Sequence record: NC_054919.1
Direction: 5' to 3' (one strand)
Length of the DNA: 64,000 nucleotides
Source: Escherichia phage vB_EcoM_G4507
Shown here: positions 28,080-43,588 of the stretch, one piece after another
How positions within the stretch are numbered: position 1 is the first letter of the stretch
Layout: every line of letters begins with the position of its first letter
Notes under the pieces: generated by a model
What the model was told of the DNA's origin: nothing
The model's database searches: none
Seen by the model: only the letters and a program-made list of their open reading frames with translations
Translations under genes and position numbers: made by a program

Positions 28080-28119
28080 TGGTAGAGCCATAATATCACA
28101 ACTCTACCGTAAAGTAAAC
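28080..28119 (-). promoter_or_regulatory. Early promoter GTTTAC, 18 nt, TATTAT
   Basis: Minus strand GTTTACTTTACGGTAGAGTTGTGATATTAT; coordinates approximate. Confidence 0.45.
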
Positions 28120-38987: not shown

Positions 38988-39032
38988 TTAGTACCTTATA
39001 TAAATTATAATACATTTTATGAAGCTAAATAA

Positions 39033-39380
39033 TCAATACGGTTTAGCATCAAATTTTCTCTCAATTTCAGGCGTGAAATATAATTCTTTACCGCGTTTGG
39101 AAAAGCGACCAATAATATGATAATTATTCTCATCAAACGTGATATTACCAATATCCATAGCTTTCAACCAAATATCGATATTTCTATCCAGCTTTATGTC
39201 AAAATTCCAATACGGAGAACTATTACCGAAAATACTGCAAGCGGATTCAGTGAAACAACTGCTATAAATCTTGTCTTTAGGAACTACTAATTGATAGACA
39301 CCTTTAATAAACTGAGGACCCTGCCATTTAGGTTGTTTCTCATCTTTTTCTAATAGAATAGGGTAATAATTAAAATTCAT
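39033..39380 (-). CDS. Hypothetical 115-aa protein of unknown function, inserted between frd and td
   Basis: Intact ORF MNFNYYPILLEKDEKQPKWQGPQF...; no motif I recognise; occupies a position where, from memory, T4 frd and td overlap directly. Confidence 0.55.
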   Translation of the reverse strand: MNFNYYPILLEKDEKQPKWQGPQFIKGVYQLVVPKDKIYSSCFTESACSIFGNSSPYWNFDIKLDRNIDIWLKAMDIGNITFDENNYHIIGRFSKRGKELYFTPEIERKFDAKPY

Positions 39381-39399
39381 ATTTCCGCCACGCGTTATT

Positions 39400-40226
<827 letters not shown>

Positions 40227-40237
40227 ATTATCTCCTA

Positions 40238-40570
40238 TTAAAAAGGATCAGGAATATATCCGCTAGCTTTAATCATTTTAATTAACGTTAGCATTCCTTT
40301 ATTAACCGCTCGTGAGATTTCATCAAAAACTTCATCACTAAAAAGTTCTAACACACCCTTCTGAACTTTTAATTTACAGCCAACAATTTCGTCATCGCCT
40401 ATAGTAAATTCATTACCACCAATTCCTCCGAAAAACTTAATTACACCAGTTAACTGTCTTCCACGAGAATATGGGTCGTGTGATAAATTAATATGAGTCA
40501 CCCCGGGTACAGTTTTAAATTGGCAGCGAATGTTTACTTGGGAAATTCCAGTTACATGAATATCAGACAT
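40238..40570 (-). CDS. Hypothetical protein (frd.2 position)
   Basis: 110-aa ORF. Confidence 0.55.
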   Translation of the reverse strand: MSDIHVTGISQVNIRCQFKTVPGVTHINLSHDPYSRGRQLTGVIKFFGGIGGNEFTIGDDEIVGCKLKVQKGVLELFSDEVFDEISRAVNKGMLTLIKMIKASGYIPDPF

Positions 40571-40580
40571 AATATTTTCC

Positions 40581-40880
40581 TCAAACAGACTTTTTCACAA
40601 TTTTCCAATCAGCTTTAAACTGTTCAACGTCAGAATGGTAAATCCAGAATCCTGCGCTTTCTCCATCCTCATAAAGAGGGCATCCATCACATTCATCTTC
40701 CCATCCCATATCACGCAAAAGACGTTCAGCTTTTTCAACAAGTTCAGAATCTTTACCAATAATATTAAAATACCATTTACCTCTAACTTCTGAATCTTTG
40801 ATACTCTGACGTTGTAATCTCATTTTATTCTCCTTAGTTGATAAGGCTATAGTATCACTACCATAGCCTGTTGTAAACAA
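40581..40880 (-). CDS. Hypothetical protein (frd.3 position)
   Basis: 99-aa ORF. Confidence 0.55.
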   Translation of the reverse strand: MFTTGYGSDTIALSTKENKMRLQRQSIKDSEVRGKWYFNIIGKDSELVEKAERLLRDMGWEDECDGCPLYEDGESAGFWIYHSDVEQFKADWKIVKKSV

Positions 40881-41174
40881 TTATTTTTGAATTTTATCGA
40901 GCCACTTACCAAGCTTAATCATTTCTTTAGTAGCCTTTTCCATACTTCTGAACTTAACCAATAGAGGATAGGTATCGACACCCATAACTAAACTGGTTAC
41001 AAGACTGTGTTCACCCACAAGCCATAACGAATACGTTTGAATATCGAGCCCGTAATTTCTGTCTTTGTGGACCCGTACACCTATCACTTCAAATTTCTCA
41101 CTAGCTTTTTCTACCGCATCCAGGAAATCATCTTTAGTCATATTAGGCCTTAAAAGTTTTTCGCAAAAGTTCAA
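40881..41174 (-). CDS. Hypothetical protein
   Basis: 97-aa ORF coupled to the frd.3-like gene. Confidence 0.5.
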   Translation of the reverse strand: MNFCEKLLRPNMTKDDFLDAVEKASEKFEVIGVRVHKDRNYGLDIQTYSLWLVGEHSLVTSLVMGVDTYPLLVKFRSMEKATKEMIKLGKWLDKIQK

Positions 41175-41508
41175 TGATTTCGTCTACATTGTTTTCATCT
41201 ACAATGCAGTGAATTTTTGTTACGCCAGAAACCTTGTCTTTGACTTCATCTTCTTCAGAAGTCGGTTCTTTATACTCGCGAAAACAATGAAATTCGTCTT
41301 CACAAACGTTAAAGTAAAAATGCTTTCCATTTGCGCATTCAATGTGTTTTATTACTCTAAATCCATCAACAAAGAAAGCTTCTTTAACTTCAAACCATCC
41401 GCCGTTTTCTTGAATAATTTTAACTATTGATGAATTAGAACGTGGGCGATAATTAATAAATGTATCAATAAGTCTTGGAACAAGCTCATACTTTTTGCCG
41501 ATATACAT
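41143..41508 (-). CDS. Hypothetical protein
   Basis: 121 aa from the internal ATG with AAATGAGGAAACCGTA Shine-Dalgarno; ORF-track N-terminus runs through a hairpin. Confidence 0.5.
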   Translation of the reverse strand: MYIGKKYELVPRLIDTFINYRPRSNSSIVKIIQENGGWFEVKEAFFVDGFRVIKHIECANGKHFYFNVCEDEFHCFREYKEPTSEEDEVKDKVSGVTKIHCIVDENNVDEIIELLRKTFKA

Positions 41509-41554
41509 TACGGTTTCCTCATTTTGATAGGGGCTTGATAGAGCCCCTTGATAA

Positions 41555-41782
41555 TTATTGTTCAATCAGTCCCATGTAAAATTCTGCGTCTTCAGAATCC
41601 ATGCCATCACAATATTCATTAGCCATAAAGCGGGTGAGGTCTTCAAGAGGACCTTCAATAACGATTTGAATACTCCAAAACTTAGAATCTTGTACGCTTG
41701 TGATACTAAGTTCAGGATAACGATTACGAATAATTTCTTCAATATATTCAAAATCAACGATGTCAATATCAACTTTAGCCAT
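41555..41782 (-). CDS. Hypothetical acidic protein
   Basis: 75 aa from the internal ATG with AAAGAGGAAAATAAT Shine-Dalgarno downstream of an early promoter. Confidence 0.5.
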
Positions 41783-41814
41783 ATTATTTTCCTCTTTAAT
41801 TATCAGCAGTATTG

Positions 41815-41855
41815 CCGATAGTTGTATAGTACCATGGAAGGACAAGGATGTAAAC
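41815..41855 (-). promoter_or_regulatory. Early promoter GTTTAC, 18 nt, TACTAT
   Basis: Minus strand GTTTACATCCTTGTCCTTCCATGGTACTATACAACTATCGGC; coordinates approximate. Confidence 0.45.
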
Positions 41856-41885
41856 CGTTTTGTGAAAAATTTTTAAAATAAAAAA

Positions 41886-41904
41886 GGGGACCCTAGAGGT
41901 CCCC
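41886..41904. terminator. Hairpin ggggacc-ctaga-ggtcccc downstream of gene 32
   Basis: 7-bp GC stem flanked by A/T runs. Confidence 0.6.
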
Positions 41905-41926
41905 AATTAATTAGTAATATAATCTA

Positions 41927-42835
41927 TTAAAGGTCATTCAAAAGGTCATCCAGGTCCGTGTCATCAGCACTAGATGAACTGCCAGAGCTTGAGCTCATAA
42001 AATCATCTTCAGTTTTTGTATTGAAGTCATCAACATTGAATGCATCCAAATCATCAGCAACTTTATCAGCTTTCTTAGCAGCAGTTGCAGCGGCACCGCC
42101 CATCACAGCAGTTCCCATAACTTGACCGAATTTAGTGCTCAGTTCTTCAAATGATTTGAATTTATCTTTAGAAGTCATTTCAGAAAGGTCAACCATTTGT
42201 TCGAACAGTTCTTTCTGAAAAGATTCATCATCAATGTTTGGAATCGCAGATTGATTCAGGAATTTAGATTCATCGTAGTTACTAAATCCAGAAACCTGTT
42301 TAACTTTCAGTACAAAGTTAGCACCTTCCCACGGACAAGTTACATCAACCGGAGTTTCACCCATTTCAACATCAACTGCAATCATTGCATTGATTTTATC
42401 CCAGATTTTCTTACCGAAACGGTATTTAAATACTTTACCTTCATTTTCTGGAGCAGCTGGGTCTTTTACAACAAGAATGTTAGCCCAGTAAGAAGTTTTA
42501 CGTTTAACAAGACTGTACTCTTTATTGTCAGTGTTGTACAGATCATTTTTACTGATGTATTGACATACTGGGCAAGAATCGTAATCACCGTGGGTAGATG
42601 AACAGTTTTCAATATACCATTTACCATTTTTCTTGAAACCGTGATTTACAAGAATTGCGAATGGTGCTTGTTCATCATTTTTAGACGGAAGAAAACGAAT
42701 TACTGCTTGACCGTTACCCGCATTGTCGAGTTTCAGTTTCCACTCGCCTTTATCTTCAGAAGAAAAACCACCTTTATTTCCAGCCAGTTTAGCCATTTGC
42801 GCAGCGAGTTCAGCAGTAGATTTACGTTTAAACAT
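41927..42835 (-). CDS. 32: Single-stranded DNA-binding protein gp32
   Basis: 302 aa; [50 protein letters not shown] and acidic C-terminal tail match T4 gp32. Confidence 0.95.
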
Positions 42836-42900
42836 TTTTATTTCCTTTTTAATTTAATTAACAGTTGGTGCTATGACGATGTATGACCTCATAGCTGGTC
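42836..42900 (-). promoter_or_regulatory. Gene 32 translational autoregulatory operator: unstructured A/U-rich leader plus upstream RNA pseudoknot
   Basis: Coding strand GCTATGAGGTCATACATCGTCATAGCACC (pseudoknot) then TTAATTAAATTAAAAAGGAAATAAAAATG; known T4 feature. Confidence 0.6.
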
Positions 42901-42934
42901 AATGAGATAATTATAATCTATTTATAATAAGCAA

Positions 42935-43588
42935 TTAATACTTACAAGATTTCACAGTTTCAATGAAAACATTTTTAGCTTTCTGTGAATCAATATTTAA
43001 AATTTTTCTATAAGCCTTTAACTTTATAGAATAATTATTCCAGACTAAATTATCAGTCTGTTCATCATGTTTATCAATTATATTTAAAAATGAATCAAGC
43101 AAGATAAACGTCTCAAACGAAATTATGTTCGATTGCAGAAGTTTAAAAATATAACTTGACTGAACCTTTGGATTATATTCAAAGATTTCTTTAAAAGCAG
43201 AAACTTCAACTTTTTTACTAAAATAGTAAATATTGCGAATATCTTCTTCAAACTTAAACTTAATTTGCTTTAAGCGTCCGATATATTCACGATAAAACAC
43301 AAGTGCATCAGCGTCAGAGATGTCACCAATCCAAGCATCTTGGTTAGCAACCAAATTACTTATAAAGATTAAAGCAAGTTCCTTTAATTTATATTTTTCT
43401 GATAACTTCTGGAAAAAATACTTATCCCTTCGCTTTTGATAAGCGGCATCAGACACCCGCATGCACCAATTATACTTAATTACATCATACTTTCCATTCA
43501 TATGCTGTTTTATCATTAAGTATAATTTATAAACTGATTTACCATCAATGTATCTTTCACCACCAGCAGGCATGCGGAGTTTAATCAT
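42935..43588 (-). CDS. 59: Helicase loader gp59
   Basis: 217 aa, same length as T4 gp59; no segG between 32 and 59. Confidence 0.9.
   Translation of the reverse strand: MIKLRMPAGGERYIDGKSVYKLYLMIKQHMNGKYDVIKYNWCMRVSDAAYQKRRDKYFFQKLSEKYKLKELALIFISNLVANQDAWIGDISDADALVFYREYIGRLKQIKFKFEEDIRNIYYFSKKVEVSAFKEIFEYNPKVQSSYIFKLLQSNIISFETFILLDSFLNIIDKHDEQTDNLVWNNYSIKLKAYRKILNIDSQKAKNVFIETVKSCKY

Follow-up and report, generated by a model that had tools for sequence, protein, structure and literature searches.

A conserved accessory gene, ORF86, in the gene 32-frd interval of the T4-like phage vB_EcoM_G4507

The stretch of Escherichia phage vB_EcoM_G4507 DNA analysed here (64,000 nucleotides, NC_054919.1), hereafter the window, contains between gene 32 and frd the genes and signals listed in Table 1. 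From the ORF listing and direct reading, every gene in this region is carried by the minus strand. Using megablast, the segment 40500-42100 was matched over its full length, at 100%, by Escherichia phage vB_EcoM_G10400 (MK327937.1), a member of Tequatrovirus; partial or full matches were found in 618 phage records, 224 of which extend over 80% or more of the query. Public records already carry annotations for the genes of the whole region, which include two textbook T4 ORFs. Upstream of the interval, genes 32 and 59 lie 99 nt apart (42836-42934), the homing endonuclease gene segG, which T4 carries between them, being missing from this phage. Beyond its other end a 115-aa hypothetical ORF (approximately 39032-39379, minus strand) is situated between td and frd; it is present in T2 and absent from T4, in which td and frd abut.

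Table 1. Genes and transcriptional signals of the gene 32-frd region, in the order in which they are read (positions are those of the window).
Feature	Position	Strand	Remarks
gene 32	42835-41927	minus	302 aa
gene 32 intrinsic terminator, GGGGACCTCTAGGGTCCCC + T run	41886..41904	minus	upstream boundary of unit
early (sigma-70) T4-type promoter, TTTACA-N17-TACTAT with TGn	41826..41854	minus	ahead of frd.3-frd.2-ORF86
frd.3	41555..41782	minus	75 aa, pI 4.05
intergenic hairpin, AGGGGCT-CTATCA-AGCCCCT	41529..41548	minus	7-bp GC-rich stem, 6-nt loop
frd.2	41143..41508	minus	121 aa, T2-type allele, FRD2 family
ORF86	40881..41141	minus	86 aa from ATG 41141
second early promoter, TTTACA-N17-TACTAT, in 11-bp stem-loop	40844..40877	minus	PeSL-type, ahead of frd.1
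frd.1	40581..40823	minus	80 aa, DUF5417
DUF7247 ORF	40238-40570	minus	110 aa
acidic ORF	39981-40226	minus	81 aa
frd	39981-39400	minus	193 aa

In the T4 record the gene order is 32, frd.3 (75 aa), frd.2 (128 aa), frd.1 (80 aa) and frd. When T4 and window DNA were aligned, the terminator and promoter hexamers were nearly identical, as were frd.3, the stem of the hairpin, frd.1 and the 3' half of frd.2; the 5' two-thirds of this last gene contained a diverged block. BLASTP analysis of the 75-aa protein showed that it is 100% identical to T4 Frd.3 (NP_049853), and it matches Phage_FRD3 (PF05798) over residues 1-75 of 75 with 135.6 bits against a cut-off of 28.1 bits. Its gene is the first one past the gene 32 terminator and early promoter, as in T4, where the position and the stem of the downstream hairpin are the same and the few DNA differences within the gene are all silent. 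Over its full length the 121-aa protein shows 68% identity to T4 Frd.2, and it possesses an FRD2 domain (PF03197; 109.8 bits, cut-off 29 bits) at residues 28-120. T2 Frd.2 is also 121 aa long and 94% identical, and the diverged block is therefore the T2 allele. In comparison with T4 Frd.2, the 50 residues at the C terminus are almost the same, whereas the N-terminal domain (residues ~10-75) is about 45-50% identical and includes an 8-residue gap, the window protein being 7 residues shorter overall. The gene thus belongs to the same family, and has the same position and a near-identical C-terminal half, as frd.2 of T4 and T2. Judged by sequence, Frd.3 and Frd.2 are direct T4 orthologues. The 80-aa protein shows 98.75% identity to T4 Frd.1 (BLASTP) and contains a DUF5417 domain (PF17438, 115 bits).

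T4 Frd.3 is the protein named in UniProt as the 'uncharacterized 8.8 kDa protein in frd-Gp32 intergenic region'. In the structure model Frd.3 is an acidic protein with a ferredoxin-like fold of a generic kind. In phrog_1764, a 391-column profile, Frd.3 covers positions 317-391 only. Within this interval, some GenBank records give a gene the label 'putative portal vertex of the head', probably an annotation error passed on from record to record. The frd.3 mRNA of T4 is reported to rank among the most abundant phage RNAs that bear an NAD cap (bioRxiv 10.1101/2024.04.04.588121), which fits a strong early promoter initiating with A. For T4 Frd.2, AlphaFold3 models show an N-terminal five-stranded LSm/SH3-like beta-barrel, reported to be shared by GoF and MotB.1 as well as Frd.2; an amber mutant is reported to show that the protein is non-essential (PMC12152347). 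In a T4 CRISPRi-ART screen frd.2 was nevertheless the sole 'Fit' gene of unknown function, scoring as important to the fitness of T4 (PMC11879866). By analogy with the published T4 models, the window Frd.2 would also be placed in the LSm-like family.

ORF86 corresponds to PHROG 4423 (phrog_4423; E-value=2.5e-49), residues 1-86 aligning with profile positions 1-86. No match to ORF86 was found in Pfam, NCBIfam, PADLOC or the PDB sequences; for all three proteins of the frd.3-frd.2-ORF86 group no E-value below 0.1 was obtained against PDB sequences, and NCBIfam and PADLOC gave no match. The initial annotation had rightly recognised three ORFs at this site, all of them on the minus strand as found here, and had made the third one 97 aa long by starting it at TTG 41174, which overlaps the preceding gene. 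Every homologue starts at the equivalent of ATG 41141 with M-T/N-K, and the GenBank CDS is 261 nt, giving 86 residues. The strong Shine-Dalgarno sequences ascribed to all three are found ahead of the 75-aa (AAGAGG) and 121-aa (GAGG) ORFs; ORF86 has AAGG only, plus stop/start coupling with frd.2 (TAAtATG).

Homologs of ORF86 were sought by tblastn. In the whole T4 genome (NC_000866, 168,903 bp) there is no counterpart, the top match having an E-value of 0.53 and spanning 20 residues within a region that is unrelated. Altogether 350 phage records carry the gene. About 218-220 of these are T4-like, with identities of 80% or more, and about one third of Tequatrovirus-like records possess it. The T4-like carriers include Tequatrovirus RB18, RB68, AR1 and wV7, Dhakavirus JS10 and Gaprivervirus P479. 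Outside the T4-like phages, homologs with 28-63% identity are present in Drexlerviridae, Stephanstirmvirinae and Vequintavirinae: identity is 59-63% in Phapecoctavirus and the T1-like phage ADB-2, some 42% in Webervirus of Klebsiella, and 28-34% in Certrevirus as well as in other phages of 145-150 kb. The PHROG 4423 proteins of RB18, RB68, AR1, wV7, JS10, ADB-2 and KOX1 have the same length and are 42-99% identical over their full length, while the genomic neighbours of those outside the T4-like phages are unrelated. The homologs are always stand-alone proteins of 83-98 aa located within arrays of small genes. A profile search with ORF86 against 1.8 billion representative proteins yielded 12 clusters, all of small stand-alone proteins, with zero domain fusions. 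In ADB-2 a gene for a 'Phage antiviral trigger protein Gp54' (PF25180) lies near the ORF86 homolog; from this neighbour, homologs of ORF86 appear to sit among early genes which interact with host defence.

An alignment of 19 homologs contains 21 invariant residues, including K-D-x-N-x-G-L-D-x-Q-T-Y-S-L-W. The AF2 model (pLDDT 84) is that of a small alpha-beta3-alpha protein with a generic fold. A dsRBD-like alpha-beta-beta-beta-alpha fold was considered as well, and no structural match to dsRNA-binding domains was obtained. As modelled, the folds of Frd.3 and ORF86 are both generic, and neither yields a function.

Two early promoters of the T4 type were located. The first, which the initial annotation had also recognised, spans 41854 to 41826, and its -35 and -10 hexamers are identical in T4 and T2. 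The second extends from 40877 to 40849 and overlaps a stem-loop of 11 bp (40869-40844; dG -15.6, z -2.9). A generic sigma-70 scan was at chance level (15 sites, 13.7 expected). In contrast, the extended motif TTTACW-N14-TGN-TAYWAT occurs seven times in the window against 0.01 expected, and all copies are on the minus strand. Since this T4-specific motif is both enriched and strand-specific, the early promoter call is sound. The seven matches, at 28090, 40849, 41826, 56027, 58492, 61629 and 62142, provide a map of T4-type early promoters.

Both promoters in the interval also agree with the TTTACW-N17-TAYWAT consensus of promoter/stem-loop (PeSL) cassettes of the PST/T4 type (PMC4122927, Comeau et al. 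2014). Each is accompanied by a stem-loop, that of the upstream promoter being the gene 32 terminator (41904-41886). This terminator was called by the terminator scan (fold dG -15.2, z -2.5), is annotated as such in MK327937, and is kept in T4 with inverted loop bases, as seen in the DNA alignment. Equivalents of the cassette ahead of frd.1 are found in T4, T2, JS10 and P479, in which the stem arms differ and still pair. The arms around the early promoters (GGCTAT..ATAGCC, GGGTAGTAG..CTATTACCC and GGTCTATAG..CTATAGACC) vary among phages and stay complementary. In phages RB49 and phi1, PeSL cassettes flank ORFans and recombine into mini-circles (PMC2839356, Arbiol et al. 2010), and such cassettes are reported to bring about the shuffling of genes (PMC2839356, PMC4122927). 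ORF86 resembles these PeSL-flanked ORFans of T4-type hyperplastic regions in being a small ORF, present or absent, next to a stem-loop promoter in a variable region. It differs from them in having a PeSL on its 3' side only, its 5' end being stop/start-coupled to frd.2, and the simple excision model with two PeSLs therefore falls short of a full account of the 5' junction.

The initial annotation had described the frd-32 interval as variable, and this is borne out: T4, T2, JS10, P479 and the window phage all differ, and the interval lies in a known hyperplastic region. The frd.2/frd.1 junction has at least three states among T-even phages. In T2 it consists of the promoter cassette only. In T4 the promoter is followed by about 70 nt with a 22-codon ORF, and the full junction of this type is present in 197 records. 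In the window ORF86 is inserted between the frd.2 stop codon and the promoter, as in about 218 Tevenvirinae records (at least 80% identity). The T4 junction, 138 nt in length (NC_000866, 146005-146142, minus strand), occupies the place of ORF86; its 22-codon ORF, situated between the early promoter and frd.1, is unannotated, would specify a hydrophobic peptide (MFAPYIMAAVMLVCLYLLIKAC) and has a GGAG Shine-Dalgarno sequence. Further downstream, tblastn of all window proteins found no counterpart in the T4 genome for the 110-aa DUF7247 protein or the 81-aa one. T2 has the 81-aa ORF only, without the DUF7247 gene, between frd.1 and frd. The alignment shows that, past frd.1, some 50 nt from the DUF7247 gene's 5' end survive in T4 as a deletion scar. 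In JS10 and P479 the same modules, namely frd.3, frd.2 (alone or followed by ORF86) and frd.1, are reordered, each bounded by cassettes of the PeSL type.

The position of ORF86 was compared at 13 T4-like loci, namely the window, JS10, P479 and ten IMG/VR T4-like contigs, which represent Tequatrovirus, Dhakavirus and Gaprivervirus. At all 13 it starts 1 nt past the stop codon of an FRD2-family gene (TAAnATG). This upstream gene is of the T2 type, the T4 type, the JS10 frd.2b type or the frd.2a type, and the junction sequences differ. In searches by Pfam, by blastp and with a local HMM for FRD2, no FRD2-like neighbour was identified beside the ORF86 homologs of ADB-2, ESCO13, KOX1 and PcCB7V.

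According to the initial annotation all three ORFs were extra genes, without a T4 counterpart, lying between an frd.3-like gene and gene 32. ORF86 is indeed missing from T4 and the interval does vary among T-even phages, yet the 75-aa protein is Frd.3 itself, the 121-aa protein is a full-family Frd.2, both stand in T4 order, and the supposed frd.3-like neighbour is Frd.1. Two of the three ORFs are hence orthologous to T4 genes that occupy the same place, and that proposal is scarcely credible for the group as a whole. What had been observed was largely correct; how it had been interpreted was mostly wrong, with support in part. We consider it highly probable that the interval is an ordinary T-even early unit following gene 32, made up of frd.3, frd.2 and the accessory ORF86. 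One might still regard ORF86 as a chance ORF or non-coding spacer, given its weak Shine-Dalgarno sequence, its lack of a Pfam family and of any known function. Against this speak a protein conserved at 28-42% across unrelated phage families with constant length and its invariant residues, a fold predicted confidently from just 19 sequences, and a stop/start coupling that is itself conserved; such an explanation is extremely improbable. ORF86 is a real, conserved and horizontally mobile accessory gene, already annotated as a hypothetical protein.

The hairpin between frd.3 and frd.2, which the initial annotation had also seen, has a predicted dG of -12.8 kcal/mol, and its stem is the same in T4 (loop ATCA) and T2 (loop ATTAC). 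Rfam gave no match across 39300-43000. A promoter-like sequence, TTTACA-18-AATTAT (41551-41580, minus strand), lies directly upstream of the hairpin in the 3' end of frd.3, and together with the CTATCAA tail it resembles a degenerate PeSL. Were the hairpin to terminate the frd.3 transcript, frd.2 and ORF86 would need another promoter. The conserved GC-rich stem with its varying loop, the promoter-like site just upstream and the report that PeSL stem-loops terminate transcription (PMC2839356) are all in keeping with termination. However, there is no U tract 3' of the stem and the terminator scan made no call here, the z-score is just -1.8, an invariant stem means that covariation offers no support, and the internal promoter-like site has neither the TGn nor the TAYWAT of the enriched motif. 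We judge termination at this hairpin to be unlikely. A different question is whether ORF86 serves as a dedicated partner of the FRD2 (LSm-like) protein, made in a fixed ratio by translational coupling and acting jointly with it, for example on RNA. The 1-nt gap kept at all 13 loci, with at least three FRD2 alleles or paralogues and two different junction sequences, would favour such a pairing. On the other hand, T2 and T4 have Frd.2 without ORF86, the upstream neighbour in T1-like, Webervirus, Phapecoctavirus and Certrevirus phages has no similarity to FRD2, and the linkage may be historical. We judge a dedicated partnership to be quite unlikely; the linkage is equally compatible with functional pairing and with one old insertion spread by homologous recombination. 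A fuller proposal is more doubtful again: ORF86 would be an obligate coupled FRD2 partner, the two proteins would form a module for post-transcriptional regulation which some T-even phages possess and which is missing from T4 and T2, and ORF86 would have been traded with T1-like and rV5-like phages to serve in host takeover or counter-defence.

Returning to the ordinary early unit, we propose that past the gene 32 terminator the promoter at 41854 to 41826 would drive frd.3, the hairpin, frd.2 and ORF86, and that the second promoter/stem-loop cassette would restart transcription into frd.1. In T4-like phages ORF86 would be translationally coupled to the FRD2-family gene, and it has most likely been gained and lost via recombination at the flanking PeSL cassettes. 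We infer that it may be made early in infection, alongside Frd.2, as a small soluble binding protein. Perhaps its role is a dispensable one in host takeover or counter-defence.

With annotations of these genes in GenBank for hundreds of phage genomes, the value of the interval as a discovery is small. The useful outcome is a frd.2/frd.1 junction with at least three alternative states, along with corrected labels: the gene taken as frd.3-like becomes frd.1, and the extra ORFs become frd.3, frd.2 and one accessory gene. The stop/start coupling of ORF86 to FRD2 genes is the sole lead worth noting, and a cheap one for groups studying Frd.2.
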